From contig NC_134025.1 in NCBI RefSeq assembly GCF_964204645.1, positions 19,195,101-19,259,100 on the forward strand: a stretch of DNA of 64,000 nucleotides, given 5' to 3'. Position 1 is the first letter of the stretch; each line of letters begins with the position of its first letter. The DNA comes from Tubulanus polymorphus (taxonomy: Eukaryota; Animalia; Nemertea). Below the pieces are notes generated by a model. It was given only the letters and a program-made list of their open reading frames with translations. It did no database searches and had not been told where the DNA came from. Below, in pieces: positions 10,615 to 43,816 of the stretch. The translations under genes and the position numbers were made by a program.

Positions 10615-10631
10615 GAAAATATGTAAAATAA

Positions 10632-11381: not shown

Positions 11382-11469
11382 TTGAATAATTATATCAATG
11401 AATATAACTGTTGGGCCGAGTATATGTTTTGGGTTTGATTTTAAACGTGAGAAAGAAATGAAATTTAAC

Positions 11470-11752
11470 ATTACTGATTTGCTTAAAGATATAGTAGCGT
11501 CGTACAATAAATCGTTTCATCGTAGTATAAAAATGGCTCCAAACGATGTCAACGAGTTAAACGCGTACAAAGTTTTCAAGAATCTATACGGTACAATCCG
11601 TAGTAAAAAACGCGTGAAATTTAAGTTTCGCGTTGGCGACACTGTGCGAATAAGCGAACTCAAAGGCCAATTTCAAAAAGGCTATTTACCCGGGTGGAGT
11701 ACCGAGTTGTTTACCGTTACGAAAAGAATTATGCGTGAGCCACCTGTATACA
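11470..11752 (+). pseudogene. Integrase fragment of the GC-rich Polinton, left of insertion B
   Basis: LKDIVASYNKSFHRSIKMAP..FRVGDTVRIS..FQKGYLPGWSTELF..PPVYK; continues in frame after the TSD at 28580-28585. Confidence 0.85.
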
Positions 11753-11829
11753 AGTAATTGTAAATGTGGGGTTTCATACCAGAGGACGAGACACCACTCA
11801 TCACCACAAGTAATTATTTTTCCTAATAA

Positions 11830-14800
11830 ATGGGAGAGAATGAACACCAGCCAGAAAATAATAATGTTAATAAAAATCAATATTATTGTCAATATTGTAA
11901 AAAATACGTCGATACATCTAATAAAACACGACATGAAAAAACTGCAAATCATATAAAAAATGTAATAGATTTTGAAACTCCAGAAAATTCCAATGAAAGA
12001 AAAGAAAGATTAGAAAATATGAATGTGGATGAAATAAAATGTGAAGTTTGTAATGAATTTATAGTAAAAAGGAATTATAATAGACATCTCGAATCACAAA
12101 AACATTATAAAAATTTAAATAAAAATGTTTTAGGATCAGAATATTTTGATAATAAACCTCAACAAGTAAAAAAATCAACTTCAAAGACTAAATCCATTTC
12201 AAATAAACCTTACATGGAAAATGTTAGAAATTATATTGATTCGCTAGAAATAACGATACAATTGAAATTTTAGAAACATTACATAGTAAAATTGGTCCTG
12301 CAGCTATTATATTTTGATTTTTTAAAGGTACTACAATAGAAGATTATAGTAAATTTAATGAAATAATAGAAAAAATACTAGATTTGATAGCAGATGTTGA
12401 ATATCCAAAAATTAGTATCTCTGGGAAAGTAAGTTTTATAAAGTCAGAAGAAAAAATGGATTATAATATTCAAACACTCTCTGAAGAAATAATTTCAAAA
12501 ACACAAATAAAAGAGAAGTTAGAAAAAATATTTTATGAATTTAAACGTCATATTGAAGAAAGATATTTTGAGGGTTCTGGCTTAACATTGAATGAAATTA
12601 TATATTTAGATTTAAATGTTTATAATACAAAAAGGAATAAAACATCAAAAAGTAATAAAATGTTTAAAAATGATTCAAACTTTACAACAGAAAAGGATAT
12701 TAAAGCATCATCTTATATTAAATTACCATTTACAACAAAAGCAGTAATAAATGTTCAAAATGAAGATAATAAATGTTTTCTATGGTCAATTATTAGTTGT
12801 TTACACCCAACAGAAGATATGACGCATAGTTTTAGAATAACAAATTACCGGAAATATGAAACATTATATAAAATTGATCAATATCCAGTAACTATAAAAA
12901 TGATTCCTAAAATAGAAAAAGTTAATAATTTAAAAATAAATGTATTCGAATTAATGCAATTACCAAAGACAAAAGGTGAAAATATTAAAGATTATACATT
13001 GGAAGCTTTATATTAACAGAATATTATGATGATGAAAATGCTATAGATTTGTTATATTACAAAAAAGATGAAAATGAACATTATATGTGGTTAAAACAAA
13101 TTGATTTATTCTTTAGAACAACAGAAAGTGATCATCATCGTAAAATTTATCTATGTAGAAAATGTTTATCTAAATTTATGACTGAGAATGCGTTACTAAA
13201 ACATAAAGAATTATGTGATAATAAAGATTTTTGTAAATTAATAATGCCAACAAAAAAAGATTGTAAGTTGAAATTTACTAATCATAAATTTAAGAATATT
13301 GTTCCATTTGTAATTTATGGGGATTTTGAATCATTGAATAAAGAATTAACCGATCAAGATAGAAAAGAAATATATAATAAAAAGCAATTATTAAAATCAA
13401 TGGATAAAGGAAGTGAATTAAATGAAGATATAATTCAAGACCCACCAATTATAAATACAATTAAAAAAGTTCATCAAAGAGCTGCTGCTTATGGAATTTA
13501 CATAAAATCAAATTATCCTGAATTATATGAAAGTCAATATATTTCTTTTAGAGGTGAAAATGTAGTTAATGATTTTTGTGACAAAATGATTGAATTAGAA
13601 AGTGATTTTGCAAAATTATTAAACAAAAATAAAAGAATAGTTATGACAAAAGAAGATGAAATTGATTTTAATTATGCAACTCATTGTTGTTATTGTGAAA
13701 AACGTTTTTATTCATTTGATAAAAAAGTTAGAGATCATGATCATTTAAATTCAAAATATCGTGGAGCTGCTCATGAAGATTGCAATTTACAAGCTAAGAA
13801 AGTTAATTTCGTACCAATATTATTTCATAATTTATCAGGATATGATACCCATCTATTTATAAAACAATTATCGGGAAAATTGGGTGCAATTAATCAAGAA
13901 ATAGAAGAATATAATGCTATGAATGAAGCAAATGTAAGAAAATATGATTTTAAACTATTAGCTAAAACATCTGAAAATTATATTTCATTTCAATTTGGTT
14001 GCATTAGATTTTTAGATTCTTATAGATTTCTAGCAAGTTCATTAGATAATTTATCAAAAAGTTTAGTTGATAATGATTTTGTTATAATTCGATATTATTA
14101 TCCAAATGAACAAGATTTTAAATTATTGAGATATAAAGGCGCAATTCCTTATTCATTTTATAAAACACACAATGATTTTAATGTAACAGAATTATTAAAA
14201 GATCAATTTTATGATCAATTAAAAGAGGAGTATGTGAAAGACGAAGTTTTTAATAGAACATTAAATATTTGGAACCATTTTAAGATGAAAAATCATGGTG
14301 AATTAGTTGATTTATATTTAAAATCAGATGTTATGATATTGGCTGACATATTTGAAAAATTTAGAGAAGTTAATTTGAATCATTTTAATGTTGATCCTTG
14401 TTATTGCTACTCTAGTCCTGGTTTAACCTGGCAATGTGGTTTAAAATATACAAATGTAGAATTAGATTTATTAAAAGAACCAGACATGGTTTTATTATTT
14501 GAAAAATCAATTAGAGGTGGAATTAGTGGTGTTATGGGAGATAGGTATTTTAAAGCAAATGATGAATATAAATTATTATATATTGACGCCAATAATTTAT
14601 ATGGTTGGGCAATGATGCAACCTCAACCATATAAAAATTTTATATAAACAGAAGTTGAAAATGGTGATAAAACTGATTGGGAAAGCGCAATTGCGAGTTT
14701 AAAAGATGAAGCACCAATTGGTTATTTCTTTGTAGTTGATTTAGAATATCCTGAAAATATAAAGTTTAAAACAAGAAACTTACCTTATTGCCCAGAACAT

Positions 14801-16891
14801 TTAACTGTAGATGATAGTTATTTAAGTGAATACCAGAAGAAAATAAAACCGAATGATCATGTTTTTACAGAAAAATTAATACTTACTCAAAATAATAAAT
14901 ACAATTATATTGTTCATTATAGAATGTTAAAATTTTATCTAAAACAAGGAATGAAATTAAAGAAAGTACATAGATATATTGAATTTAATCAATCGAAGTG
15001 GTTAGAAAAATATATAGATTTCAATACTCAACAGAGAACCATATCAAAAACAGATTTTGAAAAAGATTTCTTCAAATTAATGAATAATAGTTTTTATGGT
15101 AAAACATGTGAAAATATTAGAAATAGAAATGATATTGAATTAGTGAATAATTCTGAAAGATTAAGACATTTACAATCAAGTCCTAGCCATTTAGGAAATA
15201 AAAGATTTGAAGATTATTTAACAGCAGTTAAATTAAAAAGGACGTCAATGAAATTTAATAAACCTATATTTATTGGTTCGACTGTTTTAGAAGTATCAAA
15301 ATTATTAATGTATGATTTTTATTATAATGTTTTACAACCACTTTTTGGGGAAAAGCATATTGAAATATTATATTTTGATTCTGTAACAGCTGACACCCCA
15401 ATATTATTAAAATGTAATGATAAAATATTGATAAGAAGAATTTCAGAAATAATTCCAAAACAAAATGAATGTTATATTTCATATGGAGAAAAAGAATTAA
15501 TGCAAATAAATGGTTTAATGGATGTTTGGACAAGTAATGGATGGAAAAAATTAAAGAATATTATTAGACATAAAACAAATAAGAAAATCTATAGAGTTAG
15601 AACTAAATTAGGATTTGTAGATGTTACAGAAGATCATAGTTTAATTAAACGAAATGGCGATGAAATAAAACCAACTGATATAAAAATTGGAGATGAATTA
15701 TTACATAAAAGATTTTTCCAAAGAATGAATCATATGTCATTTGATGAAATTATTGATAATATTTATAATATAGAACCCGAAACATTAGAAGAAAAAGAAT
15801 ATTTTATCAAAGGATTTTTCATGGGTGATGGTTCAGCAGGTGTGTATAATTATGTTAATCGCACTCAATATCGTTGGTATTTATGCAATCAAGATTTGAA
15901 ATTGTTAGAAAGAATAAAGAAATTCTGCGAAGAAGTTTATTCACATAAAACATTTAGAATCATGGATCATATGAAATCATCCGCGGTTTATAGAATATTT
16001 GTAGATAATCCTAAAGATTTTGCTACAAAATATAATGATGAATTCTATATTCATGCAATAGTGAAAAGTAATACTTCAACTAAAGAAAAGATAGTTCCAG
16101 ATTATGTATTAAGTGCAAAAAATAATTTAAGAAAATGGTTCTTCATTGGATTCTATGCAGCAGATGGTTCAAAAAGTTTCAAAACAATATCTTTAGCTCA
16201 AAAAGGAAAAGTTGCTATATCAGGATTGAATATATTATGCAGTTCATTAGGATTTAATATGAATATAGAATTAATTAAATCTAAACCAAATTGTTTTAAT
16301 TTAAGGCATGTAGAAAAAGAATTAACAGAAGAAGTTAAAGATTTATTTGAAATATATAACCCAACTGACTATGTTTATGATTTATCAACAGATGATGGAA
16401 CATTCAATTCTGGGTTCCCATTAATCCAAAAAAATACTGACAGTTACATACTAAAAATCAAGACAAATGATATAACAAAAGACTTAAAAACATTAAAACA
16501 TTATTTTGATTTTAGCAATTATCCCAAAGATCATGAATTGTTTAGCAATGATAATAAAAAGATTCCTGGTAAATTTAAAGATGAATTAGGGGGTGTTGAA
16601 ATGATTGAATTTGTTGGGATAAGAAGTAAAATGTATAGTTACAGAACAAAAGATCATGAAGCTAAAAAGTTAAAAGGAATAACAAAACATGTGGTTGATA
16701 AACATATAGAATTTCAAGATTATATAAAGTGTTTATATAAATCAATTGTAATGAAACACAAAATGAATTGTTTAAGATCAGAAGATCATGAGATGTACAT
16801 TAATGAAGTTGAAAAAACTAGTTTAAATCCATTTGATGATAAAAGGCATATTTTAGATGATGGTATAAAAACATTACCTTATGGTCATTAA
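11830..16891 (+). pseudogene. polB: Protein-primed family B DNA polymerase with intein, disrupted upstream of the intein
   Basis: Same motif order as copy A (IYGDFES, VRDHDHLN, FHNLSGYD, YIDANNLYG, KLMNNSFYGK, YFD/TDS, RSKMYS); frameshifts near 12250 and 13013, stop ending at 14647. Confidence 0.93.
15380..16435 (+). mobile_element. Intein (352 aa) with LAGLIDADG homing endonuclease in pPolB motif C
   Basis: In-frame 1056-bp insert between YFD and TDS, absent from copy A; block A SVTADTP, block B VTEDHSL, LAGLIDADG-like FIKGFFMGDGS and FFIGFYAADGS, block F YVYDLST, C-terminal KN followed by Thr. Confidence 0.95.
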
Positions 16892-16946
16892 AACATAAAA
16901 TCAATATCATCATACTCGAAATCACTATTGGCTTCTTCATTTTCAT

Positions 16947-18200
16947 TTAATTGTTCAGGTTCTTCTTCCATTTCATTTTCTCATTTAAATAAAGTTCTAT
17001 CTTGTTCCACATTTCATCTCGCTCTCTTTGTTTCTTTTTGTTTGTTAATTCATCAAATGGAATTATAATATCTAGGTTTAAATAATTTACAATCTTATTT
17101 AAAAAGAATTCATAATTTATTGAATCTGTTATTCTATTTTCCAAATGATACATTAATATTTGTTTGAATATTTTTTTTATATTTTCCATATCTTCTGTTA
17201 ATTTAGGTTTTTCATAATAATCGTTAAATAATAAATATAAATACATTTTCTTTTGTTTTGTGTTAAATGTTGGCGGAATAATTGTTTTTATAATATCTTT
17301 TTTAGTTATTTCACCATTTTTATTTTCTATTATTTTCATTTTTTCAAGCCATTGCATATATTCTGGTGTATGATCTTCCATAGAAAATATTTTAAAAATT
17401 TCATCTAGATAATTTAATTTTGGATCTATGAGAAAATCTCTAGTTTTTTCTTCACCCAATAAATTCTTTTGCCATCCACATTCATTTCAAAATAACACAG
17501 TACCTTCTTGTCTTAAGGTCTCATAAATACATTGTGGGCATTTTTGTTTATAATTTATTAGTAATAGATCTTCATTAAGCTCTTGGTATTTTCTTACGTT
17601 TTCTTTATGTTTTATTGTTCTATTATGTACATTTGAATTACTTGTTGTAATAATCAATTTACAATATTTACAATAATATGTTTTTCTTGTTAATTCATTA
17701 TATTGTTTTTCTAACTTTTCAACTGTTTCTTTATTATCTGGTAACGTTTTCTCATATTTTATTTTTTCTAATAAATTATTTTTTCTTTCATTAAATTCAG
17801 TTTCAAATTTATTAGAAATTTTATCTATATGTACTTTACGAAATTGATGATTCTCCCAATCTTCTATATTTTCAGGGTTATATTTTATTCGACAAGGCTC
17901 ACAGAAATGATCTTTTATATTATCCTTATCATAGAATAAGAAAGGTCTTTTCCAAATAACTTCAGGTTCAACTTCGGCAGAATTACTATTACTTTCATTA
18001 CTATCAACATTAGCCGTTGCGCCATTAATTCTACACTTCTCTGAATGTTTTTTAACATAATTTCTTGAGAATAATTTATTACATTTTGGGCAGTTTAGTT
18101 TAGGGGGTTTATAATTTTCATCATGTTTTTTCATATGTCGAGCCATATTACTTTTTCTTAGAAGTTCACCACAAATTTCGCATGCTATCTTCTCATCCAT
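16947..18200 (-). pseudogene. Multi zinc-finger protein, one gene split by a nonsense codon
   Basis: ORFs 17487-18200 and 16947-17459 are in frame; the TGA falls in CPQC...F*NECGW where Cys is expected; C2H2-like motifs CEIC..H..H and CKYC..H..H. Confidence 0.7.
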
Positions 18201-18267
18201 TTATTAAGGAAAAATTTTATTAAAATTAATTTTTAGTGATGAGCGGTAATTTTTTATGTTATAGATA

Positions 18268-19026
18268 ATGGTAGAATTAAAAGAATACAGAATATTTGTT
18301 GATTCTAGAAAACTTACAAATTATAAATCACATAATTTACTAGTACAATTAGATAGAGAATTTAAGAATTGTGTAGATTTAAAATTAGTTAATATAAGTT
18401 TATGTAACTCATTTTACAATATATCGGATAAAAGTCTAGAACATTTAATTTTTTCAATCTTTTACAAAAAAAGGAATAAATGGTTTTTTTTATATTTAAA
18501 ACCAGGATTATATAATTTAGATACATTAGCACAAGAAATTAATAGAAAAGCTCGAGCTAAATTAGGAAGTGATTCCGGATTTAGTATTAGAATTTTAAAA
18601 AGTGATAGTGCTAATAAAATAAAGATTAGGTTAGCTAATGACGAACAATTTAAATTTACAGTAAGAAAACCTTTAGGTAAACTGTTAGGAATTAACCCAG
18701 ATATTGTTACAGCATACGCAGAAGGTAGATCAAACTTAATACCTTTTACACATTTTTATATTTATTGCAATTTGATTAACCCAACAAAAACATTTGAAGC
18801 AACTAAAGATACAATTTGTAATTCTGGTTTATTAAATATTTTACCATTAAAAAATGTCAAACAATTTGGAACTCAAATAAATTATAATTTAACTGAATGT
18901 GATTTCAAACCTTGTATTCCACATTTCAATAATTTTAAATTAGAAATAAGAAATCATAATGGTTATTTAATTGATTTGAATAACTTTCCTGTAATTTATG
19001 AATTAGTTATAAGATGTAAAGAGTAA
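18268..19026 (+). CDS. Minor capsid (penton-like, single jelly-roll) protein
   Basis: N-terminal IFVDSR, PGLYN, IYCNLI..LNILP, C-terminal LIDLNNFPVIYELVIR; pattern and size typical of Polinton/PLV minor capsid proteins. Confidence 0.7.
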   Translation: MVELKEYRIFVDSRKLTNYKSHNLLVQLDREFKNCVDLKLVNISLCNSFYNISDKSLEHLIFSIFYKKRNKWFFLYLKPGLYNLDTLAQEINRKARAKLGSDSGFSIRILKSDSANKIKIRLANDEQFKFTVRKPLGKLLGINPDIVTAYAEGRSNLIPFTHFYIYCNLINPTKTFEATKDTICNSGLLNILPLKNVKQFGTQINYNLTECDFKPCIPHFNNFKLEIRNHNGYLIDLNNFPVIYELVIRCKE

Positions 19027-19042
19027 TTTTTTTGATATATAA

Positions 19043-19402
19043 ATGAATATAACTGTTGGACCGAGTATATGTTTTGGGTTTGATTTTAAATGTGAGAAAG
19101 AAATGAAATTTAATATGAATGATGTAATTACACATATCAAAAATATTGCATTTTCTAATGAAACAACATTTGAGTATAAAACAACAATAGATAAAGAAAC
19201 TTTAAATGTAGAAAAGATTACTAATTTAATTAGAGAATCTTTAAGATTTTATGAATTAGATGAAGATTTTATCATAGATGATATCAAAAACATATTATCC
19301 AAAATATATGATAATCATAAAAGTAGTAATGAAATAAATGTTGAATTAATCATAAATAAGATAACTAAATATTTTGATGATAGTAATTTTTTTGATAAAT
19401 AA
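19043..19402 (+). CDS. Hypothetical Polinton protein
   Basis: 119-aa ORF with TAAATG start; first ~24 codons duplicated at 11398. Confidence 0.6.
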   Translation: MNITVGPSICFGFDFKCEKEMKFNMNDVITHIKNIAFSNETTFEYKTTIDKETLNVEKITNLIRESLRFYELDEDFIIDDIKNILSKIYDNHKSSNEINVELIINKITKYFDDSNFFDK

Positions 19403-19624
19403 ATGAGTGATAATAAGTGGATAATAACTGGATTATTTAATGGAGCATTACTATCAGTTGGAACTGTTGGTTATTCAATGGTATTAAAAAAAGTATTCAA
19501 AATGGGAAGTGTTAATGTTGATAGATTTGATATAAATGATATTTTGAAATTAACATTAGCAGTTACTTTATCTAATTTAACTATTGATTATTTGGAAAAA
19601 CAAAAATATATTCCTCCCATATAA
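19403..19624 (+). CDS. Small hydrophobic protein
   Basis: 73 aa, two hydrophobic segments, TAAATG overlap with upstream stop. Confidence 0.6.
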   Translation: MSDNKWIITGLFNGALLSVGTVGYSMVLKKVFKMGSVNVDRFDINDILKLTLAVTLSNLTIDYLEKQKYIPPI

Positions 19625-19648
19625 ATGCATAATTTTTTTGCTAAATAA

Positions 19649-20071
19649 ATGGCTTCTGCAATTATAACTATTATAGGATCGGCAATTGTTAACGCTTTAG
19701 CATTTACTGGTGGTGGTTATTTATTTAAACATATTGATAAAAATAGTTCATTAGGAGAACAAAGAAGACTTAACTTAGCGTTAGAGAAATATAATAAAGC
19801 TGCAGAAGAATAAAGAGAAAAGAGGCAAAACTATATGGATTATATTAACAAAGAATTATATGATCAGAAGATTTCACATAGAGATTTTCAATCAGTTGAT
19901 GATGCAATGAGTTTATATAACGCGGTAACCAATAAAGAAAAATTACATCTATACAAACCTAAATTATCAGATTATTATACCCCGAGTAAAGAACAACAGA
20001 AATATGAAATAATATGGATTTTAGGTGGAACTGTTATTGTTATATTTGTAGCATATAAATTTACTAATTAG
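19649..20071 (+). pseudogene. Small membrane/coiled-coil protein with premature stop
   Basis: MASAIITIIGSAIVNALAFTGGGYLF.. is in frame with ORF 19835-20071 through a TAA at 19811-19813; C-terminal hydrophobic helix. Confidence 0.65.
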
Positions 20072-20091
20072 TAATTTTTTTTGCTAAATAT

Positions 20092-20525
20092 ATGGAAGAT
20101 AAAGTTGATAATATTGATATTATTCCTCATGATATAAATAAAACTAAATTAAAAATATACTTAGAAAAACAAATATTAGAATTTGAAAGTGACTTAAAAG
20201 TTAAAAAGAAAAAATATCTAAAAGTAAAATTATATATTATTTGATTATAAGTGGTTCGGTTACAATTAGTTCTGTAATAACATTTCTAGCAATATTCAGT
20301 CCATTAACACCTTTAGCTATATCAATTGGTGTGTTAGGATTAAGTTCAAGTGTTTTAACCGGTATAAGTTCAAAATTAAATATAAAAAGTAATAAAGAAA
20401 AAATTAAAACTAATATAAAAGAAATTAATAAATTAAAGAATACACTAGATTATATAATAAGTTTAAATGGCCATATAACAGTTGAAGAACAAGATAAATT
20501 ATTAAAAGAATTAATAAATTATTAA
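20092..20525 (+). pseudogene. Small two-TM protein, frameshifted
   Basis: ATG at 20092 after T-run, frameshift near 20240 into hydrophobic ORF 20241-20525. Confidence 0.55.
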
Positions 20526-20541
20526 TTTTTTAATTATATAA

Positions 20542-21930
20542 ATGGTAGATAGTTTTCCAAAAGCTTTCCAATATAATAAATCAATTAAATATAATATTCC
20601 AGCAATAGATTTTAATAAAGATATAATATATAGAAATGAAGTTTTAGATTCATTAACTAATTTAGAAATTTATGTTACTGAAACTAATAATTTTAATGCA
20701 AAGATGGAAAATATATTTCATGTATATTTAATTAATTTTAAAAAATTGAAAGATGAAAAACAATGGTTATTAAAATCTAATATGAAGTATTGGCAGAATC
20801 AATTAAATTTTGCTGTTTATTGTGCAACACCAGGATGTGGAATTAGTTGGAATGATCATTTGAATAATTCTAAATATAAACTAATTCAGAGTTTATTTAG
20901 ATTTCATACATACTTTCAAATTAGAATAATATTAAATGAATTAGAGTGCGCTTTACCAGGTTTAAGATATTTTAAAGAATTAGATAATAACATTAATTTA
21001 TCAAAGTTTTATAAAATTTGTAATGAATTTAATATAGATATAAATAATTCTGATTTTAGAACAAAAATTGGAACAATAAGATCACTTCCTTGCCCTAAAA
21101 AGATTGCAGAATATTGTGCACTTCCCATACCATCTAATAGTTTTTATAATATCTATAATAATAAATTAGGTTATGGTAAAATAGAAACTAAGGATTTAGA
21201 AACATTAAATTTCAATAAATTACCGAAATTTTATGATAATTCAAAACAAGAAAACAATAATGGTTGGGTTTATTTTATTTTAGAAAATAATGAAGGTTTT
21301 ACAAAATCAGGTATACAAAGAATAAATCAATCTATTAGAACTTATTTGATATGTATTTTAGGTGCGCAAGTTGAAACAAGATCCCCAATAGTTGGAAATT
21401 TAAATACATCATTTGATACACAGAAACAATTCAAAGTATTATTTGAAGATTCCATACATAATGATAAAAATAGATCGATTCCAGAAAACATTGTAAGATA
21501 TCAAAATTATTTAGATAAATCACATATTAGATTAAATTATTGTATAGGCCCTAATCTATTAATTATTTCTTATGATTTAGTATTAAAGATGGGAAACATA
21601 ATTGGTTATAATAATCTAATTAAAACTGCAACAATAAATAATTCATTTGGATTGAATGATATAAATAAAAAGATTATTACTGCTCCAAAATTAATGGAAG
21701 GCGAAAAAAATAAAAAACACATTCAAATAACAGAAACTAAAACTAAGAATATTAAATTAAATAATGATTCTAAAATAAAAGATTACAATACATCAGAAAA
21801 TATTAAAACTGATAATATTCAACATTTTATAATTAAACTAAATGATGATAATAAATTACATGAAAATACTAAATTAGCTTTAACTTGTATAGGAATTGTT
21901 ATAGGAGGAATATTATATTTTAAATTTTAA
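20542..21930 (+). CDS. Polinton protein of unknown function with C-terminal TM anchor
   Basis: 462-aa open ORF; WQNQLNFAVYCATPGCG and GIQRINQSIRTYLICILGAQ blocks; hydrophobic tail. Confidence 0.75.
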   Translation: MVDSFPKAFQYNKSIKYNIPAIDFNKDIIYRNEVLDSLTNLEIYVTETNNFNAKMENIFHVYLINFKKLKDEKQWLLKSNMKYWQNQLNFAVYCATPGCGISWNDHLNNSKYKLIQSLFRFHTYFQIRIILNELECALPGLRYFKELDNNINLSKFYKICNEFNIDINNSDFRTKIGTIRSLPCPKKIAEYCALPIPSNSFYNIYNNKLGYGKIETKDLETLNFNKLPKFYDNSKQENNNGWVYFILENNEGFTKSGIQRINQSIRTYLICILGAQVETRSPIVGNLNTSFDTQKQFKVLFEDSIHNDKNRSIPENIVRYQNYLDKSHIRLNYCIGPNLLIISYDLVLKMGNIIGYNNLIKTATINNSFGLNDINKKIITAPKLMEGEKNKKHIQITETKTKNIKLNNDSKIKDYNTSENIKTDNIQHFIIKLNDDNKLHENTKLALTCIGIVIGGILYFKF

Positions 21931-21946
21931 TTTTTTTATTATATAA

Positions 21947-23401
21947 ATGGATGTAGAAGGTGGAGAAGATATTGGAATGGATCCTTTTGATGAACCTGGT
22001 ATAACTGATGAACAACCACCTGATTTTGATGAAACAAGTTTTAATGATGGTAATGAGCCAGAATATAATAATAATTTGAATATGCCTGATTATATTAAAA
22101 ATGCAGAATCACAATTAAATCCTGAAAATTTAGACCCATATTTAGTAAAAGAAGAATTAAATAATTTAAACAAAATAGCTAAATTAGAAGATATAATTAA
22201 AAAATCTAAACTTAACATAAATGATGAAGACGTTGGACCTTTAGTAGATAAATTAAGATTTTTAGATAATGGTAAATGGTATTATCATTTGAAAGGTGAT
22301 TATTATATTGATATCACTTATAAACGTGAAAAGAAAATATTATCAGAATCAACTTTAGAAAAATTAGAACCAGATAGAATTAAAAGAATAAGTAATAGTA
22401 ATGAAATAACTGATGTTACACAAAAAGAAAGAGATGATAATATAGACGTATTTAAACAAAGAATTAATGAATTATTTGAAATAATCAAAAAGAAATCAGA
22501 AACAGAAACAACATCTGAACAGAATATAACTTCCAAAACTAGTAAACTTAAATCAAATAAAGTTTCAATTGAAAAACTTTTACCGAATGGATTAATTGAT
22601 GCAACAGATCAACAATTAGAAGATTTAAATATATTTTCTGATGAAGCAATTAGAGAAATTATTAGTATAAGAAATGAAGCTGATAAAATTGCACATAATA
22701 AAAGTATAAGAGATCAAAAAATTATGTATTTGGAAAAAGAATTAACTAATGCAAATAAAGAAATAGAACAATTAAAGTCTGATTTAGATCATCAAGTAAT
22801 TGATGAAATAGAATATAGGCAAAAAGAATTACGCTTAGAAAAAGAAAAAGATGATTTAGAATATAACATAGAATTACAAAAAGAAGAAATTAAATCATTA
22901 TTAAAATCATATGATTATAATATAAATAGATTAAAAGATGTTTTTAAAAGATATCTAATAAAACCAGATTCTAAAATATCATTGAAAGATAGAATAAAAT
23001 TATTATTTAAGTTTGAAGGAATAACAATTCTTTCAATTCTAACAGCTGTAACTATGTTATTTACAACAATTGGTTTAGCTATATCAAATGCTTTGAAATC
23101 TACTCCTACTCCAAATAAAACAGATAAACCCCCAGATAATAATTCTATACAAGATAAAGTTAAGGATGGTTTAAAGAAATTAGCAAAATATTTATGGGAA
23201 CTATCTAAAAAATCTGCTGCAGCATTGCCAGGAGTTATTGCATCAATTGTTGGTTTTATATTGAAATCTGCTGGGAATATTCTTAACTTTGCTGCTGAAC
23301 ATATTATTTTATTTTTAATTACAGTTGTAAGTGCTATTATTTTTGGGTTAGTAAATATGATATCAAAAAGATATCAAGAAAAAATAATAAAAAATAAATA
23401 A
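21947..23401 (+). CDS. Coiled-coil protein with C-terminal hydrophobic/amphipathic helices
   Basis: 484-aa open ORF; acidic N-terminus, E/K-rich coil, GITILSILTAVTMLFTTIGLAI and LPGVIASIVGFILK segments. Confidence 0.75.
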   Translation: MDVEGGEDIGMDPFDEPGITDEQPPDFDETSFNDGNEPEYNNNLNMPDYIKNAESQLNPENLDPYLVKEELNNLNKIAKLEDIIKKSKLNINDEDVGPLVDKLRFLDNGKWYYHLKGDYYIDITYKREKKILSESTLEKLEPDRIKRISNSNEITDVTQKERDDNIDVFKQRINELFEIIKKKSETETTSEQNITSKTSKLKSNKVSIEKLLPNGLIDATDQQLEDLNIFSDEAIREIISIRNEADKIAHNKSIRDQKIMYLEKELTNANKEIEQLKSDLDHQVIDEIEYRQKELRLEKEKDDLEYNIELQKEEIKSLLKSYDYNINRLKDVFKRYLIKPDSKISLKDRIKLLFKFEGITILSILTAVTMLFTTIGLAISNALKSTPTPNKTDKPPDNNSIQDKVKDGLKKLAKYLWELSKKSAAALPGVIASIVGFILKSAGNILNFAAEHIILFLITVVSAIIFGLVNMISKRYQEKIIKNK

Positions 23402-23421
23402 TTAATTTTTTTGTTTAATAA

Positions 23422-24577
23422 ATGAGTGGGAGTTATATAAGTCCTTCTAAGATTTCTAGAATATCTAATGCTATTAAAGCAGAAAGATCACATCGTATAA
23501 TTACTCATAACCCTTCAAATATTAATCCCGATGAAACTTTATATGTTAGAATTCCTAGATTAACACAAAATACTTTTTACGTTCCAAATAGTATTTATTT
23601 ATCAGCCGATATAAAAGTAACTGGCCATGATAACAATTATGTTATTGATAATGTTGGAAGATATTTGATTAAAAAATTAACTATAAAGATTGGTCCAGAA
23701 ACAGTTTTCTCATTAGATGATTATAATTTATTCATGCATTATAAAGATTTATGGTTAACTAAAGAAAATAGAAATAATTTGATATTTCAGGGTATTCAAT
23801 CGGAAAACCATAATAAATTAAGATCAGGAGCTAATGACGCAATAGTAACTCGTGCCACAGATAATTTGATTAAAAAGATTTATGGAAGCAAATATAAAAT
23901 TCCATTAGATTTTGAATTGATAAATAATAATGCACCTTTATATAAATACGCAATTCAAGAAGATATTATATTTGAGATAACATTTGCTCCTGTAAATGAA
24001 ATTGTATTATCTAGCGTTGTTAAAGATATGGGTTATAAATTATCGAATATATGTTTAGAATATAACACAGTAAATAATGAAAATATTGCTAGCACAATTC
24101 AAACTCAATACAATCAAGGATTTTCATTATTATATGATTATATTGATAAATTTAAAACCATAACTATTAATGCAAATGATGAAATAATTAATGAGAATAT
24201 TAACTTCCCAAGAAGATCTATTAAAGGTATATTAATATTTTTTACCATTGCAACATATTCTAATGGTGCAATAAAGGTAGATAATTATTATAATCCTGAA
24301 ATAACAAAAGTAGAAATAACTATCGAAGGAATAGCAAATAAAATATTTTGCCAAGGAATGAGAATGATAGATCAGTGGCCAGAAATTAGAAAACATTTTA
24401 TGAATGAAAAAGTAAAATCATTTGAAAATTGTAATATTAATCAAATTCATTATTATACCGGCAATAAATATGCATTATGGTTAGATTTTAGAACAACAGA
24501 GGATAATGCACATTTATATTATATCTGACGCGCAATTAAATATTGTAAATTCACAATTAGATAGTATTCAATATTAG
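23422..24577 (+). pseudogene. Major capsid protein (double jelly-roll type) of the AT-rich family, frameshifted near C-terminus
   Basis: ITHNPSNINPDETLYVRIP, NVGRYLIKKLTIKIG, YALWLDFRT; likely true end ISDAQLNIVNSQLDSIQY* lies in another frame; located before integrase/ATPase. Confidence 0.75.
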
Positions 24578-24607
24578 AAATATAAAGTTAAAATTAAGGA
24601 TATATAA

Positions 24608-25275
24608 ATGGGCGGTAAAAAAACTCCTAATACTAAAGAACAATATTTAAGAAATTCATATTACAACCCTGAGAGTTCAGTTGCTTATTCTTCTACTAAA
24701 AATATATGGCGTCAAGTAAAACAAGATAAATTAGATAAGATAATCCCACAAAATTTAGTTAAATATAAAGATATAAATGAATTTATGTTAGAACAACCAA
24801 CATATACAACACATAAAAAACTTATCATTCTTCTATTGGAATGAAACCTATTGATGCTAGAAAACCTGAAAATGCTGAAATTGTTTGGAATAATTTATAT
24901 GGAGCATTTCTTGTAGATGATTTTGGTGAACCTAAATTTAAAGTTGGTCAAAATGTTAGAATTTCTAAGTATAAAAAGATATTTGATAAAGGATACGATC
25001 GAAATTTTACTAGAGAAATATATAAAATAAAAAAGGTAATAACAACAAAACCATATGTCTATAAATTAGAAGATTTAGATGGTGAAGAAGTTGATGGCTA
25101 CTTTTACGAAGAAGAATTAAGTTTAACTACTGAAAATCTAGAACAAGAATATAAAATTGAAAAAGTATTAAAAACAAAAACTATTAAAAGAAAAAAATAT
25201 TCTTTAGTAAAATGGGTTGGATGGCCAGATAAATTCAATGAATGGATATTATCAAGTAAAATTAAAAATATATTA
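24608..25275 (+). pseudogene. Retroviral-like integrase with catalytic core deleted
   Basis: Matches 38875-39966 but lacks ~457 bp (39055-39511 equivalent) at 24820/24821; chromodomain-like LVKWVGWPDKFNEW retained; stop mutated TAA>TTA. Confidence 0.9.
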
Positions 25276-25884
25276 ATGAATAAAGAATTATTTATATTTG
25301 AGCCTCATAATATGTTAATATCTGGCGTAACAAATTGTGGAAAAACTTATTTTATATTAAATTTATTAGAAACTGTTTATGAAAACTATTTTGATAATAT
25401 AGTATTATTTTGCCCAACGTATGAATTTAATCAAACTTATGATAGAAATATTACTAGAAATAATAAATTTATTATATTAGATCCTAAAACAGTAAACGAA
25501 AATTTAAATAATTGTATTAAAATAGCAATTGATATTTATAAAGGATCAAATACATTATTTACCATACATGATTGCGCTAATCTACATGATTCAAAAGTTA
25601 GAGAAAGTGAGTTATGTTATTTAGCTTTCTCCGGGAGACATTTCGGGATAACAACTTGGGTTTTAAATCAAAAATATAATTCAATTGTTAAAGACTTTAG
25701 AGAAAACATTAGATTTCTAGTTTTATTTTATAACAAAGATAGAAAATCGATGAAAAATGCACTTGAGGAAAATGATATTATTCCACATGATTTACATAAT
25801 GAATATATGGATAAGTTGAAAAATATTAAAAGATCAAAATTACTATTTAGATTACAACACCCATTTAAATATGAATTTATTTAA
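25276..25884 (+). CDS. A32/FtsK-like DNA packaging ATPase
   Basis: Walker A GVTNCGKT; Walker B altered to TIHD (IIDD in the 39967 copy); SGRHFGI and VLNQKY motifs. Confidence 0.85.
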   Translation: MNKELFIFEPHNMLISGVTNCGKTYFILNLLETVYENYFDNIVLFCPTYEFNQTYDRNITRNNKFIILDPKTVNENLNNCIKIAIDIYKGSNTLFTIHDCANLHDSKVRESELCYLAFSGRHFGITTWVLNQKYNSIVKDFRENIRFLVLFYNKDRKSMKNALEENDIIPHDLHNEYMDKLKNIKRSKLLFRLQHPFKYEFI

Positions 25885-26140
25885 ATTCAATTAGTTTGTT
25901 AATCTAGTTGAATTCTAGTTATTGGTAGTTGTAACAAAAATCAAATAGATTTAACAATATTTTAACTAGCTTGTTAATCTAGTTTAATTCTAGTTACATT
26001 CTAGTTGAATTCTAGTTGTTAGTAGTTGAAACAAAAATCAACTAGATTTAACTAGAATGTAACTAGAAATAAACTAGATTAACTAGCTTGTTAATCTAGT
26101 TGAATTCTAGTTACATTCTAGTTGAATTCTAGTTGCAACA
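25885..26140. repeat. CTAG-rich mixed direct/inverted repeat array
   Basis: Repeated ctagttgaattctagtt units with a reversed block at ~26040-26085; similar array at 40576-40855. Confidence 0.75.
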
Positions 26141-26166
26141 TCACAACTAATTTTTTTGTTATATAA

Positions 26167-26772
26167 ATGGTAGGTGAAAAGAAAATAAAATCTAAAAATG
26201 GTGATGTTCCAATTGAAAAAACTTTAGATGATTTAGGAATAACAGAAACAAAATTAACTCCAGATGATGGTGCTTTAAATAATGTTACAACAAATAATAA
26301 TTATGAATATTATCTTTATTGCAAACATCAATTAGAAATATTAATAGCATCTGGAAAATGTAAAAAATTTGTCGATAAAAATTTAACTTATAATGAATTA
26401 GATACAATGAAATCAGATGAAATTATTAGATTATTTAAGATTTATGAAGCCGCGAGAACAGCTAAAATTAATGACGCGATATCAGAAAATGTAGTAAAAG
26501 GTTATAGTAAATTATGTAATTATATACTACCAATTGAAGATGAAAATAGATTATATTCCGATTTAAAAAATGATTATTTAGTTATGACTGAATTAAATAA
26601 ATGGATTGGATATTTATCGTTTCAATTAGGTGGATTTATGACATTATTATCAACTGGGGTTATAACATTTTCAAATATTGAAAGTAAAAATATTTCTATA
26701 ATAAATGAGCGAGGTGAAAGAAGTGAAGGAATTAACTGTGAAGAAAAAACCGAGAACTCAGAAACAAATTGA
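26167..26772 (+). CDS. Hypothetical Polinton protein
   Basis: 201-aa ORF, TAAATG start; 5' end repeated at 40882. Confidence 0.65.
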   Translation: MVGEKKIKSKNGDVPIEKTLDDLGITETKLTPDDGALNNVTTNNNYEYYLYCKHQLEILIASGKCKKFVDKNLTYNELDTMKSDEIIRLFKIYEAARTAKINDAISENVVKGYSKLCNYILPIEDENRLYSDLKNDYLVMTELNKWIGYLSFQLGGFMTLLSTGVITFSNIESKNISIINERGERSEGINCEEKTENSETN

Positions 26773-27061
26773 ATGGTCTCGACAATTAGGAATTAAATCA
26801 CAAGAATATAAAAAAGCTGTAAAAGAAAAAATAAGTAATAAAAATGGTGAAAATATTGTTATTTCTACTCCTTCTAATAATAGAATATTTGATAAATGTC
26901 TATATTTTACAGTTGGATTTGTAATTGTATTCATTTTGATTGGGTGTAATTGGTATAAGAAATCAAATAAAATTCATGATATTAATAATTCTGAAACAAC
27001 TGCTATCAAAAATGAAAATACTTCTGAAATTCCAAAATTGATAATAAAAAAAATGGATTAA
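26705..27061 (+). CDS. Small single-TM protein
   Basis: 118 aa, basic N-terminus KKKPRTQKQIEW, TM LYFTVGFVIVFILIG, TAAATG start. Confidence 0.6.
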   Translation: MSEVKEVKELTVKKKPRTQKQIEWSRQLGIKSQEYKKAVKEKISNKNGENIVISTPSNNRIFDKCLYFTVGFVIVFILIGCNWYKKSNKIHDINNSETTAIKNENTSEIPKLIIKKMD

Positions 27062-27524
27062 AATTTTAGAAAAAAAGCATAAAAAATGATTTTTTTTAAT
27101 TAATTGAATATTAATTGAATATCTCACTACTTTTGTCTATCTATGCGGAGCAATTAAATTGTCCAGATAAGTCATTTCGGATTCTAGATATTCATTATTT
27201 TTATTAATTTATTTTGTTTTTACTTGAATATTGTATTACAGTCGTTTCTTATTATTAGTTTTTTCTTAAATTGAAAGATGGCAGCACTGGGTGTAATGCT
27301 AAAATGAATATTTGAATTTGAATTTGAATTTGTTAATCAATTAACATAGTAATTGATTACTAATTTGATTAAAAATTATATCATAATTAAGTTAAAAATC
27401 CATAATTCATTTATCAGTTTTCATTCTTATATTCTTTTCATTCGGAATAATTTATAATTTCAATTTTTTTTAGCACCATCAACATTTACTTAGGTGTTTT
27501 AGCTAAGTATATAAGACAATTCAT

Positions 27525-27775
27525 TCAACCACTGGAGTAGCTCTGGCCAGCAGAGGCATTTTGAAAATGCACCTTCGTCCACTCTCCGGGTTTCTCCTTC
27601 GGTTTCGAATTTCGAGATTGGTAGAAATTACATTAGGCGCCTTTAATATAATGTGATTTCTACCAACCATTGAAGGAGATCCCGGTTGACGTGGGTCGCC
27701 GGGGGTGTAAGTAGAAATGACGGGGGATAAGCGTCCCGTGGCGTCTTTCAATAATGGGATGCTTATCCCCTGAAA
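27525..27775 (+). ncRNA. Candidate structured RNA/ssDNA element (several hairpins)
   Basis: GC-rich island with stems ttggtagaaattacatta/taatgtgatttctaccaa, ggggataagcgtccc/gggatgcttatcccc, cccggttgac/gtcgccggg; conserved at 42940-43190. Confidence 0.4.
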
Positions 27776-28167
27776 ACTCTGTAGGTCGAGGATAGGGCAA
27801 TTTTGCTAAAACTTACCGTAAAAACATTGAAATATTCCTTTTAATCACGAGAGAATGATGACTATCCTCCTGTCGTCACGGCCGAGCTAATTTAAATAAA
27901 CCTCGCTTTCAGCAACCAATGAAAACGTGGTAGTTCAATGCCGGCTAACTGGTTTGTGTGTGTTGTATGTACTACGTGCTTATTATAAAACTGCTAGCTA
28001 TCCAATATAACAACAACGTTGTGCAACACCTGTTTGATTGATCAATATTCAAATGAAGCACTCTCTTATAATAACATGTAACAGATGTTTGACTGTATGA
28101 TTGTAGTTGTTTATAAAACGACTTAGGTCATTTTGGATTCTAGATATTCATTATTTTTATTTCTTAT

Positions 28168-28494
28168 TTAATCAACAATTTCTAAATCATGATGACCGTC
28201 TTCATTTTTCCCATGATATATTATTTTAAATCCTACTAAATCTTTCAATTCCTCTGTACTCAATGAAACCCATTTATCGGGTAAAAACACTTTAAATTCT
28301 CGTGATGTACTAACATTACAGTAGCTTAAATTAGCTGATACTTTCTCTCCATATTTAGTTTTTATCTTTTCTAATTTCAATATCTTATGTTCAATTTCTT
28401 TTGTAACATCAACTAACTTTTTTATTTCAAATTGTTTTTTTGTTGGTTTAATTCTGTTATTTATTGTTGCTAAGAATGCTTTTCTATCTCCCAT
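28168..28494 (-). CDS. Small conserved Polinton protein (possibly OB-fold nucleic-acid binding)
   Basis: 108-aa ORF starting inside the right TIR; homologs at 10263, 43491-43816 and ~44357; fold assignment is inference. Confidence 0.65.
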   Translation of the reverse strand: MGDRKAFLATINNRIKPTKKQFEIKKLVDVTKEIEHKILKLEKIKTKYGEKVSANLSYCNVSTSREFKVFLPDKWVSLSTEELKDLVGFKIIYHGKNEDGHHDLEIVD

Positions 28495-28585
28495 TTATTA
28501 GGAAAAAAAATTACTTGTGGTGATGAGTGGTGTCTCGTCCTCTCGTCCTCTGGTATGAAACCCCATATTTACAAATACTTATACA

Positions 28586-38937: not shown

Positions 38938-39966
38938 ATGTGGCGTCAAGTAAAACAAGATAAATTAGATAAGATAATCCCACAAAATTTAGTTAAATAT
39001 AAAGATATAAATGAATTTATGTTAGAACAACCAACATACACAACACATAAAAAAATTGTTAGAAAAGATAAAACTCGTAAAACTATGGTAAGTTATGTAG
39101 ATCAACAGTGGCAAGGAGATTTAATTGATATGAAAAATGTCAAGAAAGATAATGATGATTATTGGTGGATATTGAATATAATTGATATTTTTAGTCGTTA
39201 TGTATGGAGCTTCCCACTTTACAGAAAAGATGCTGCACAAACATCAAATGTTTTAAGAAAATTTCTTTCGGATGATAAAATAAAACCAGAAAAAATACAA
39301 TTTGATGATGGAAAAGAATTTGATAATTCACTTGTTCATGAACTCTTAGATAATCATAAAATTAAATATTTTTCAACAAAATCGGATAAAAAAGCAGCAG
39401 TTAAACGATTTAATAGAACATTAAGAACAAGAATGTGGAAATATTTTACAGCAAATAATACTTTTAAATGGATTGATGTTTTACCAAAATTGATAGAAGG
39501 ATATAATAATTCTTATCATTCTTCTATTGGAATGAAACCTATTGATGCTAGAAAACCTGAAAATGCTGAAATTGTTTGGAATAATTTATATGGAGCATTT
39601 CTTGTAGATGATTTTGGTGAACCTAAATTTAAAGTTGGTCAAAATGTTAGAATTTCTAAGTATAAAAAGATATTTGACAAAGGATACGATCGATATTTTA
39701 CTAGGGAAATATATAAAATAAAAAAGGTAATAACAACAAAACCATATGTCTATAAATTAGAAGATTTAGATGGTGAAGAACTTGATGGCTTCTTTTACGA
39801 AGAAGAATTAAGTTTAACTACTGAAAATCTAGAACAAGAATATAAAATTGAAAAAGTATTAAAAACAAAAACTATTAAAAGAAAAAAATATTCTTTAGTA
39901 AAATGGGTTGGATGGCCAGATAAATTCAATGAATGTATATTATCAAGTAAAATTAAAAATATATAA
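38938..39966 (+). CDS. Retroviral-like (DDE) integrase with chromodomain-like tail, 5' truncated
   Basis: WQGDLID, IDIFSRY, QFDDGKEF, AVKRFNRT (catalytic Glu apparently lost), YNNSYHSSIGMKP, LVKWVGWP. Confidence 0.9.
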   Translation: MWRQVKQDKLDKIIPQNLVKYKDINEFMLEQPTYTTHKKIVRKDKTRKTMVSYVDQQWQGDLIDMKNVKKDNDDYWWILNIIDIFSRYVWSFPLYRKDAAQTSNVLRKFLSDDKIKPEKIQFDDGKEFDNSLVHELLDNHKIKYFSTKSDKKAAVKRFNRTLRTRMWKYFTANNTFKWIDVLPKLIEGYNNSYHSSIGMKPIDARKPENAEIVWNNLYGAFLVDDFGEPKFKVGQNVRISKYKKIFDKGYDRYFTREIYKIKKVITTKPYVYKLEDLDGEELDGFFYEEELSLTTENLEQEYKIEKVLKTKTIKRKKYSLVKWVGWPDKFNECILSSKIKNI

Positions 39967-40575
39967 ATGAATAAGGAATTATTTATATTTGAGCCTCATA
40001 ATATGTTAATTTCTGGCGTAACAAATTGTGGAAAAACTTATTTTATATTAAATTTATTAGAAACTGTTTATAAAAACTATTTTGATAATATAGTATTATT
40101 TTGTCCAACATATGAATTTAATCAAACTTATGATAGAAATATTACTAGAAATAATAAATTTATTATATTAGATCCTAAAACAGTAAAAGAAAATTTAGAT
40201 AATTGTATTAAAATAGCAATAGATATTTATAAAGGATCAAATACATTATTCATTATAGATGATTGTGCAAATTTACATGATTCAAAAGTTAGAGAAAGTG
40301 AGTTATGTTATTTAGCTTTCTCTGGGAGACATTTTGGGATAACAACATGGGTTTTAAATCAAAAATATAATTCAATTGTTAAAGACTTTAGGGAGAATAT
40401 AAGATTTCTAGTTTTATTTTATAACAAAGATAAAAAATCGACGAAAAATGCACTTGAGGAAAATGATATTATTCCACATGATTTACATAATGAATATATG
40501 GATAAGTTGAAAAATATTAAAAGTTCAAAATTACTATTTAGATTACAACACCCATTTAAATATGAATTTATTTAA
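39967..40575 (+). CDS. A32/FtsK-like DNA packaging ATPase
   Basis: GVTNCGKT, LFIIDD, SGRHFGI. Confidence 0.9.
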   Translation: MNKELFIFEPHNMLISGVTNCGKTYFILNLLETVYKNYFDNIVLFCPTYEFNQTYDRNITRNNKFIILDPKTVKENLDNCIKIAIDIYKGSNTLFIIDDCANLHDSKVRESELCYLAFSGRHFGITTWVLNQKYNSIVKDFRENIRFLVLFYNKDKKSTKNALEENDIIPHDLHNEYMDKLKNIKSSKLLFRLQHPFKYEFI

Positions 40576-43490: not shown

Positions 43491-43816
43491 TTAATCAACA
43501 ATTTCTAAATCATGATGACCGTCTTCTTTTTTTCCATGATAGATTATTTTAAATCCTTCTAAATCTTTTAATTCCTCTGTACTCAATGAAACCCATTTAT
43601 CAGGTAAAAATACTTTAAATTCTCGCGATGTACTAACATTACAGTAGCTTAAATTCGCTGATACTTTCTCTCCATATTTAGTTTTTATCTTTTCTAATTT
43701 CAATATTTTATGTTCAATTTCTTTTGTAACATCAACTAACTTTTTTATTTCAAATTGTTTTTTGCTGGTTTTATTCTGTTATTTATTGTTGCTAAGAATG
43801 CTTTTCTATCTCCCAT
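43491..43816 (-). pseudogene. Copy of 28168-28494 small protein, frameshifted
   Basis: Near-identical sequence, one base shorter. Confidence 0.75.

Follow-up and report, generated by a model that had tools for sequence, protein, structure and literature searches.

We examined a 64,000-nucleotide stretch of contig NC_134025.1 of the nemertean Tubulanus polymorphus (the window, meaning the whole stretch analysed), which holds three copies of an AT-rich family of Maverick/Polinton elements (about 22% GC) in surroundings of 35-46% GC. Our subject is copy B, called B below, together with the word TAAATG that stands behind a run of T at the starts of its genes. The initial annotation, made from the letters alone, had taken this signature as a sign that an intronless family with no RNA polymerase gene is transcribed by a large DNA virus on which it depends, in the manner of a virophage. 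The copies lie as follows.

~6000-11490: copy A
11753-28579: copy B
pieces between ~38200 and 45000: copy C

The TAAATG motif and its accompanying factor

All 12 starts at which TAAATG had been noticed (11830, 18200 on the minus strand, 19043, 19403, 19649, 20542, 21947, 23422, 24608, 26167, 26705, and 28494 on the minus strand) do read so, and the T-run described upstream of them is present at nine of the 12 as a run of at least five T within positions -24 to -7. For a comparison with background, open reading frames (ORFs) of B were called mechanically as non-overlapping frames of at least 60 amino acids (n = 18). TAAATG stands at 11 of these 18 starts vs 38 of 645 other ATGs (Fisher p 2.5e-9), and T-run and TAAATG occur jointly at 9 of 18 starts vs 3 of 645 other ATGs (p 1.6e-13). 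As controls, TAA precedes the first ATG in 4 of 26 spurious overlapping ORFs and in 331 of 5048 ORFs (6.6%) in Markov-2 simulated sequence. Over the whole window TAAATG has 113 matches, vs 103.5 +/- 10.5 in shuffled sequence, a figure that 18 of 100 shuffles reach; its enrichment is positional, not window-wide. The longer pattern AATTTTT-N5-11-TAAATG occurs 11 times on the two strands of the 64 kb, every time at the start of an ORF of the AT-rich family.

The seven starts that the mechanical count scored as lacking TAAATG are mostly not true starts. They include pieces of the gene for a protein-primed, type B DNA polymerase (pPolB) at 12456, 13085 and 14924, the second half of a gene for a VLTF3-like factor (17381) and an integrase-to-ATPase read-through (24841), and 19835, just past the short 19649 ORF, may be a second piece of that ORF. 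With fragments set aside, about 12 of the 14 real genes of B have the exact TAAATG, and the other two, each one letter off, match it exactly in copies A or C. The packaging ATPase, named earlier as such a case, indeed starts at TTAATG in B (25276) and at TAAATG in copy C (39967). The contrast drawn with the neighbouring GC-richer Polinton also stands, TAAATG being found at 0 of the 10 starts checked there and in other ORFs of the window. The intergenic spacers in the block 18268-23422 are 0-24 nt long and made up of the motif, and a single putative promoter class serves the polymerase, integrase, capsid and VLTF3 genes alike. The individual sites, with L001 denoting the closest relative of B, are these.

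11809..11833, plus strand: motif (T-run and TAAATG) of the 11830 gene
18197..18221, minus strand: motif of the zinc-finger/VLTF3-like gene; same motif at the L001 homologue
18247..18271, plus strand: variant motif of the penton-like gene, T-run kept, GATAATG; TAAATG at the homologous starts 10632 (copy A) and 44622 (copy C)
19022..19046, plus strand: motif of ORF 19043-19402
19382..19406, plus strand: motif of ORF 19403-19624, its TAA doubling as the stop of the upstream ORF
19628..19652, plus strand: motif of ORF 19649-19813
20521..20545, plus strand: motif of ORF 20542-21930
21926..21950, plus strand: motif of ORF 21947-23401
23401..23425, plus strand: motif of the major-capsid-like gene; kept at the capsid start in 14 of 15 clade rows (see below)
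24587..24611, plus strand: TAAATG start of the integrase remnant, no T-run
26146..26170, plus strand: motif of ORF 26167-26772; same in copy C at 40882
26684..26708, plus strand: TAAATG start of ORF 26705-27061, no T-run
39946..39970, plus strand: TAAATG start of the copy C ATPase gene (39967-40575), directly 3' of an intact integrase
43813..43837, minus strand: copy C motif, homologue of that of the 28494 gene

The extent of the motif among relatives was assessed by a scan of metagenome contigs with an alignment of the major capsid protein (MCP), which gave 80 loci; 16 of them, with a capsid about 45% or more identical to that of B, make up the clade referred to below. TAAATG is found at 53 of the 69 ORF starts of the clade vs 97 of 2305 other ATGs (4.2%; p 1.3e-53). 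Clade loci range from 20 to 44% GC, and TAAATG is retained in those of 36-44% GC. The other 64 loci have it at 2 of 382 starts, and the 12 of them below 37% GC at 1 of 47. A capsid tree was built from 55 of the 80 loci and the window (capsid ORFs of at least 330 aa with a readable start; 25 partial loci were left out). All 14 rows with TAAATG fall inside one 15-row group (SH-aLRT 99), and the trait requires 2 changes vs a shuffled mean of 12.6. TAAATG is a shared trait of one capsid-defined clade, independent of composition.

Other promoter-like patterns were seen outside this clade. In the sister lineage of the clade (contig L051, positions 1-9360; also L075 and L014), 6 of 12 L051 genes have a TATA-like word (WATAYA) no more than 25 nt upstream of the ATG, vs 2.5% of other ATGs; this seems to be a further type of near-ATG promoter among Mavericks with VLTF3. 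The VLTF3-like ORF of L051 (5082-5576) scores 24.0 bits, just below the Pfam cut-off.

A contig of quite different content, L149 (positions 1-8021, an IMG/VR GVMAG contig), encodes PCNA, dCMP deaminase, a pyridine nucleotide-disulphide oxidoreductase, an AAA ATPase and HNH genes and has T-run plus TAAATG at 6 of 11 genes, so that the pox-type signature occurs in environmental giant viruses too. A scan of IMG/VR for the 21-nt motif gave 74 single matches, many in AT-rich giant-virus bins and most of them probably due to chance; only L149 had TAAATG at many genes. Scans of IMG/VR with the MCP, as a single protein and as an alignment, found no relatives.

Position frequencies around the starts, conditional on TAAATG, hold in the AT-rich and the GC-richer subgroups.

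-21: A
-19 to -17: T, A, A
-16 to -10: T-run, with T at -12 in 92-95% and T at -13 in 79-85% (the 9th and 10th nt upstream of TAAAT)
-7, -6, -5, -4: T, A, W, A
+4: G in 63-85%

The late promoter of vaccinia and mpox virus, as PMC11980589 describes it, consists of TAAAT, typically followed by G and overlapping the start codon, and of a T that is conserved at the 10th nt upstream of it, amid less conserved T. Compared as sequences, the clade motif and this promoter correspond in each part and in the same register. The T-run fits the core of a late promoter instead of the poxvirus early terminator TTTTTNT, with which the initial annotation had associated it; that association is unsupported, as 11 such words lie inside genes of B, the antisense word is equally depleted and motif-less relatives show the same.

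The base at -3 is T in 52 of 63 clade starts and a purine in 226 of 311 outgroup starts. A uniform pyrimidine at this position is the poorest context for a scanning ribosome. Poxvirus late mRNAs begin in the A's of TAAAT and carry a slipped 5' poly(A) leader, and a T at -3 would make sense if that T were not transcribed.

The ORFs 18200-17487 and 17381-16947, on the minus strand, are one frame with a single stop between them. This gene, which had not been listed when B was first read, is predicted from its modelled structure to encode a VLTF3-like factor whose nearest folds are poxviral. Its C-terminal 144-aa ORF matches PF04947 (Pox_VLTF3) at 25.4 bits (E 1.3e-5; cut-off 25), and 28 of the 30 ESM-Atlas clusters nearest to the C-terminal half are VLTF3. 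An exhaustive search of 1.84 billion representatives returned only 3 relatives of this half, and a word-index search with it gave no match. An AlphaFold model computed from a 5-row alignment (the 3 relatives plus the L051 homologue) reached a pLDDT of 82.5; a single-sequence fold with a pLDDT of 45.6 was set aside. Among the predicted viral structures of BFVD, the top match to the model was cowpox VLTF-3 (E 4.7e-4, TM 0.69), and ranks 3, 4 and 6 were two entomopoxvirus homologues of it and the one from swinepox virus. Poxvirus VLTF-3 thus fills four of the top six places, and many other VLTF3-like proteins of nucleocytoplasmic large DNA viruses (NCLDVs) come after.

Boundaries, copies and genes of element B

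B is a bounded mobile Maverick insertion with 5'-AG...CT-3' ends, terminal inverted repeats (TIRs) and a 6-bp target-site duplication; the AG/CT ends and the 6-bp duplication are hallmarks of Polintons and Mavericks. Kapitonov and Jurka are said to have set out in 2006, as criteria for Polintons, TIRs with 5'-AG...CT-3' ends and a 6-bp target duplication. Besides its TIRs and duplication, the family has the coding marks of the group in pPolB (PF03175, E 2.1e-13, three ORFs in B) and an rve integrase (copy C, L001 and a further locus, L002). The TIRs of B are about 85-95 nt long, with arms 11749-11791/28541-28583 alike at 93% and 11778-11837/28487-28546 at 97%. In two DNA contigs of run X2, 11746 is followed at once by 28580 and the 16833 bases between them (16827 + 6) are absent, which shows that an uninterrupted target exists. 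The insertion splits the chromodomain end of the GC-richer Polinton's integrase, whose halves are ORFs 11398-11757 and 28555-28797. The first 32 residues of ORF 11398 (11398-11493) are 78% identical to the small family ORF 19043 (19043-19138), after which it runs into the C-terminus of that integrase; this composite marks the junction where copy A ends against the GC-richer Polinton.

B is one, decayed, member of a multi-copy family: two breaks interrupt its PolB frame, the integrase core is missing and a single in-frame stop lies in its VLTF3 gene. Reads and contigs of DNA under the same species label depart from B at 13012 and 14646, in or beside the two PolB breaks; all five X2 contigs that span the stop in the VLTF3 gene differ from B there; and at the point where the capsid gene is truncated (24505/24507), 406 and 429 reads continue differently from B. 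Because family sequences differ at these places, the defects examined look private to B, and the absence of introns claimed for the family is consistent with the data, the pPolB breaks being defects of this copy. That the family is multi-copy follows from read depth (about 50-500 on B per strand direction, above 100 in most bins, vs 20-50 on the right flank), from the identity of most B-matching reads (90-99%) and from the many distinct flanking sequences at the right end. Contigs of 185-300 nt, as few as 1-5 letters off copy B (window 10500-29800), were also seen in runs X5 and X6, a marine metagenome run and a run labelled with another organism; given their small share, they could be DNA of the same species.

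The features of B are listed from left to right, including its two duplications.

11747..11752, no strand: left 6-bp target-site duplication TATACA, from sequence reading and the empty-site contigs
11753..11837, plus strand: left TIR, from the inverted-repeat arms; opens with 5'-AG and holds the promoter motif of the first gene
11830..12273, plus strand: zinc-finger ORF (zf-U1 type), 147 aa; PF06220, E 2.5e-6; homologue in copy A
12456..16891, plus strand: protein-primed DNA polymerase B in three ORFs (12456-13016, 13085-14647, 14924-16891); PF03175, E 2.1e-13; PF14528, PF14890
16950..18200, minus strand: zinc-finger/VLTF3-like gene, a single frame with an in-frame TGA at 17487-17489 private to B
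18268..19026, plus strand: tentative penton-like (minor capsid) ORF, 252 aa; weak PF19254 match, E 0.0033; kept in copies A, C and L001
19043-23401, plus strand: conserved ORFs, no function assigned
20542-21930, plus strand: ORF of 462 aa, conserved across Maverick relatives
21947-23401, plus strand: ORF of 484 aa
23422..24528, plus strand: major-capsid-like gene, 368 aa, 3'-truncated; relatives have 415-427 aa, and by alignment the last ~50 residues are missing
24608..25884, plus strand: N- and C-terminal integrase remnants (chromodomain PF00385, no rve core) running into an A32-type packaging ATPase (PF04665, E 1.7e-10)
25839..26189, no strand: block of direct and nested inverted repeats (TTAACTAG-rich), the direct repeats ~100-118 nt apart, between the ATPase and the next gene; also in copy C at 40552-40904
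26167-26772, plus strand: ORF
26705-27061, plus strand: ORF starting inside the upstream ORF
28168..28494, minus strand: TIR-proximal ORF, 108 aa, no function assigned; homologues in copy C and L001
28487..28579, minus strand: right TIR, closing with CT-3' and including the motif 28491-28515 of the 28494 gene
28580..28585, no strand: right target-site duplication TATACA, paired with the left copy

A domain scan covering 20 ORFs of B recognised no RNA polymerase, capping enzyme or protease domain, which bears out the earlier claim about the polymerase; the protease looked for includes the adenain type. Homologues of VLTF-1 and VLTF-2 were likewise not recognised in B, and tRNA and Rfam scans of B gave no match. 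The assignment of the MCP is a sequence-based one that rests on 410 relatives, which lie in Maverick-type loci, and on an ESM-Atlas lead in which the nearest clusters are viral and a few have capsid Pfam families. The two best-listed organism-named relatives among the 410 come from a bivalve genome record and a clam-symbiont bin. Intact rve integrase is encoded by copy C (38938-39966) and also by L001 and L002.

The zinc-finger ORF at 11830 may be the N-terminal part of the pPolB gene. Within the last pPolB ORF (14924-16891), the DTD motif (YFD|...|TDS) is split by an intein (~15383-16432) that is about 350 aa long and includes a LAGLIDADG domain. The motif is uninterrupted at this position in copy A, and the intein is thus polymorphic within the family. 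A GC-richer non-coding stretch of about 0.9 kb (27240-28100 in B, 42880-43720 in C) is 94-95% alike in the two copies and has no ORF, tRNA or Rfam match. L001 has, behind the same motif, a deoxynucleoside kinase gene (10340-10981, minus strand; PF01712, E 1.7e-31), a gene that B does not carry.

Elsewhere the window is a nest of mobile elements. ORFs of a BEL/Pao-type retrotransposon (DUF1759, Peptidase_A17) lie at 47041-50459, and an ISXO2-like DDE transposase ORF at 52824-53432; the BEL/Pao group is not known outside animals, and its presence points to an animal as the probable host. Between 54607-57951 and 60633-64000, four adjoining inverted-repeat pairs (1623, 484, 496 and 747 nt) are 100% complementary; together they make an almost perfect palindrome, each arm about 3.3 kb long, that extends to the window end. 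The palindrome (54607-64000) is either a foldback element or an assembly artefact.

How the genes might be transcribed

In our best, still tentative reading, T-run, spacer and TAAATG form a promoter of the poxvirus late type. The RNA polymerase using it would be that of a pox-like large DNA virus infecting at the same time, and the family would then be a hyperparasite of the virophage kind; we regard this as possible rather than probable. Under such a scheme transcription would start inside TAAAT, leaving the T at -3 out of the mRNA and probably adding a slipped 5' poly(A) leader. The polymerase and the remaining late factors would be supplied by the helper virus, the element's own VLTF3 would steer the helper polymerase to the element's promoters, and integrated copies would be silent until a helper infection.

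Several observations favour transcription by a helper. One promoter class stands on all genes, as is reported for virophages, in which a single class across all genes is said to match that of their giant virus. Without polymerase slippage the leader would be only about 3 nt long. The partners of VLTF-3 in vaccinia are the viral polymerase and other late factors, which B lacks. Polinton-like viruses have been found in entomopoxvirus occlusion bodies, according to PMC11296320, and the giant-virus contig L149 carries the same signature.

Of the interpretation given in the initial annotation, then, a real and composition-independent motif, a pox-late architecture closer than first described, the lack of a polymerase domain in the 20 ORFs and the bounded Maverick have stood, and the T-run as an early terminator is unsupported. 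Somewhat doubtful, in our judgement, is a fuller version in which the clade would consist of provirophages of an undescribed pox-like virus, silent until its late machinery arrives and is hijacked by their own VLTF3, and in which the copies could be an inducible antiviral defence in a metazoan. Endogenous mavirus is such a defence in Cafeteria.

A number of results weigh against a helper. No helper virus was found. Among 12 runs no RNA run contained the stretch; a putative RNA run yielded just two partial matches of 20 nt to it, and a further two runs under the same species label likewise matched over no more than ~20 nt. In one DNA read set (run X7) there were no read-end piles at the TIRs, and a free linear form was not seen. 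Like ordinary Mavericks, the family resides in the germline at high copy number and has chromodomain integrases. The PF04947 match is at threshold and is lost on the 417-aa read-through and in the homologues P0122-P0124, the two closest ones included. VLTF3 and TAAATG are not strictly coupled, as L051 has a VLTF3-like ORF with TATA-like motifs and no TAAATG. TTTTTNT gives no clear sign of a terminator, the sense word occurring in ORFs 11 times vs 23.4 expected in B and 7 vs 26.6 in L001, and the antisense word, equally depleted, 74 times vs 122.9. Finally, the element's own VLTF3-like factor keeps alive an alternative in which host RNA polymerase II (Pol II) is used.

This alternative, which we consider doubtful and nonetheless the strongest of the rivals, describes an autonomous nuclear virus in which the motif would be the binding and initiation site of the virus's own VLTF3-like factor, recruiting host Pol II with no helper; the likeness to poxvirus late promoters would in that case stem from common ancestry, or from a VLTF3-promoter pair having passed between polintoviruses and Nucleocytoviricota. 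It draws on the VLTF3-like gene of B, which has the motif at its own start in B and L001, and on the ordinary character of the family as a multi-copy germline Maverick with TIRs, duplication and rve integrases. Large DNA viruses lacking a polymerase also carry VLTF3, and host Pol II use is assumed for polymerase-less giant viruses. The VLTF3-like ORF and TATA-like words of the sister contig suggest that near-ATG promoters with VLTF3 are lineage-wide, and five near-complete, more distant relatives are without both VLTF3 and motif. A VLTF3 homologue in a subgroup of polintoviruses is already in print, in PMC11131425, which cites Krupovic and Koonin 2016 for it. The same sister contig also counts against an autonomous virus, since its VLTF3 comes without TAAATG. 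So does the position of the promoter, which abuts the ATG. With T at -3, the leader could be no longer than 3 nt in the absence of polymerase slippage; animal Pol II is not known for such a habit. A single promoter class, moreover, gives no early/late order, and the partners of vaccinia VLTF-3 (viral polymerase and further late factors) are missing from the element.

Much less likely, the motif would mainly help to form the 3' end of the gene upstream, either as a poly(A) signal (AATAAA/TATAAA) or as a T-rich terminator, with tight packing bringing it into contact with the next ATG. The T-run does often open at or just past the upstream stop, in spacers of 16-24 nt; positions -5 to +1 are AATAAA at roughly half of the sites, the others having TATAAA; and TTTTTNT lies within 40 nt past the stop in 6 of 18 ORFs of B. 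Yet the motif precedes genes that have no upstream gene, namely the two TIR-proximal genes, the divergent pair 18200/18268 and divergent pairs in the loci L010 and L011. What is invariant is TAAATG in exact start-codon register rather than a hexamer, canonical AATAAA being found in only about half of the sites, and depletion of TTTTTNT in genes is no stronger than that of the antisense word or than in motif-less relatives.

A translation signal, in the form of stop-start coupling (TAA, then ATG) on polycistronic RNAs or of an A-rich start context, is highly improbable. TAA is in frame with the ATG by construction, is a real upstream stop at 19403 and ends a 7-codon mini-ORF at 19649, but of the 12 TAAATG starts 19403 is the only one whose TAA closes the annotated gene before it; at the others the upstream stop precedes the ATG by 16-24 nt or more. 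A T at -3 gives the weakest context for a start, the outgroup having a purine in 226 of 311 starts, and the fixed T-run 9-16 nt upstream is left unexplained.

Chance or base composition in an element of 22% GC, to which the lack of window-wide enrichment and a TAA before 5.9% of ordinary ATGs in B might have pointed, is refuted, with next to no probability left to it, by the enrichment over background ATGs in B (Fisher p 2.5e-9) and in the clade (1.3e-53), by retention of the motif at 36-44% GC and by its absence from AT-rich relatives (1 of 47 starts).

Relation to known systems

With the late promoters of poxviruses (vaccinia, mpox, entomopoxvirus) and their VLTF-3 (A2L), B shares TAAATG(G) on the start codon, an upstream T in a T-rich tract, a short spacer and, as modelled, a factor of the VLTF3 fold encoded nearby. 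It differs from poxviruses in being a Maverick of 16.8 kb that integrates and has pPolB, an rve integrase and a capsid module of presumed jelly-roll type; RNA polymerase, VLTF-1 and VLTF-2 were not recognised in it, and the motif is on every gene and not on late ones only.

The VLTF3-bearing subgroup of Polintoviricetes and B have in common pPolB, an rve-chromodomain integrase, an A32 ATPase, capsid-like genes, TIRs and a 6-bp duplication, and the VLTF3 homologue reported for the subgroup has a counterpart in B's VLTF3-like gene. B differs from this subgroup in that a protease was not recognised, and we found no paper tying these elements to TAAATG or to a pox-type promoter. The Polinton-like viruses of entomopoxviruses (PMC11296320) are, like B, small polinton-related elements, in their case tied to animal poxviruses, and they offer a precedent for hyperparasitism. 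They differ in their highly divergent capsids and in that some have primase-helicase replicons; integrase was not detected in AHEV_PLV1 and Ca_PLV1, a tyrosine recombinase is encoded by another two, and an rve integrase is described for none of them. The words "promoter", "motif" and "TAAAT" do not occur in the text of PMC11296320. More widely, in the full-text literature (supplements not covered) we found no paper in which Polintons, Mavericks, adintoviruses or polinton-like viruses are connected with TAAATG or with a promoter of pox type.

In virophages (mavirus, Sputnik and the endogenous mavirus of Cafeteria), genes carry the late-promoter motif of the giant virus, and this promoter mimicry is how protist virophages tie their expression to that of the giant virus. 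They resemble B as small, integrating double-stranded DNA elements with pPolB and rve integrase, one promoter class like the late class of a large virus and no polymerase of their own. B differs in that its capsid is of the Maverick/Polinton lineage, its host is probably an animal, its motif is pox-type and not of the mimivirid TCTA type, and it carries its own VLTF3. The occurrence of its MCP relatives in Maverick-type loci (pPolB or helicase, rve), together with the lack of relatives in IMG/VR, seems to point away from the virophage class.

Promoter mimicry is not known to have been described before for Maverick/Polinton elements, which are found mostly in animal genomes. If the clade does consist of hyperparasites of pox-like viruses in animals, the motif would be a computable marker for such elements and for their unseen helpers. 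If instead a VLTF3-plus-TAAATG module is common to polintoviruses and Nucleocytoviricota, it would bear on the proposed polinton ancestry of giant viruses. Virophage promoter mimicry and the VLTF3 of polintoviruses are both known; their combination in a Maverick clade appears to be a new variation on them.

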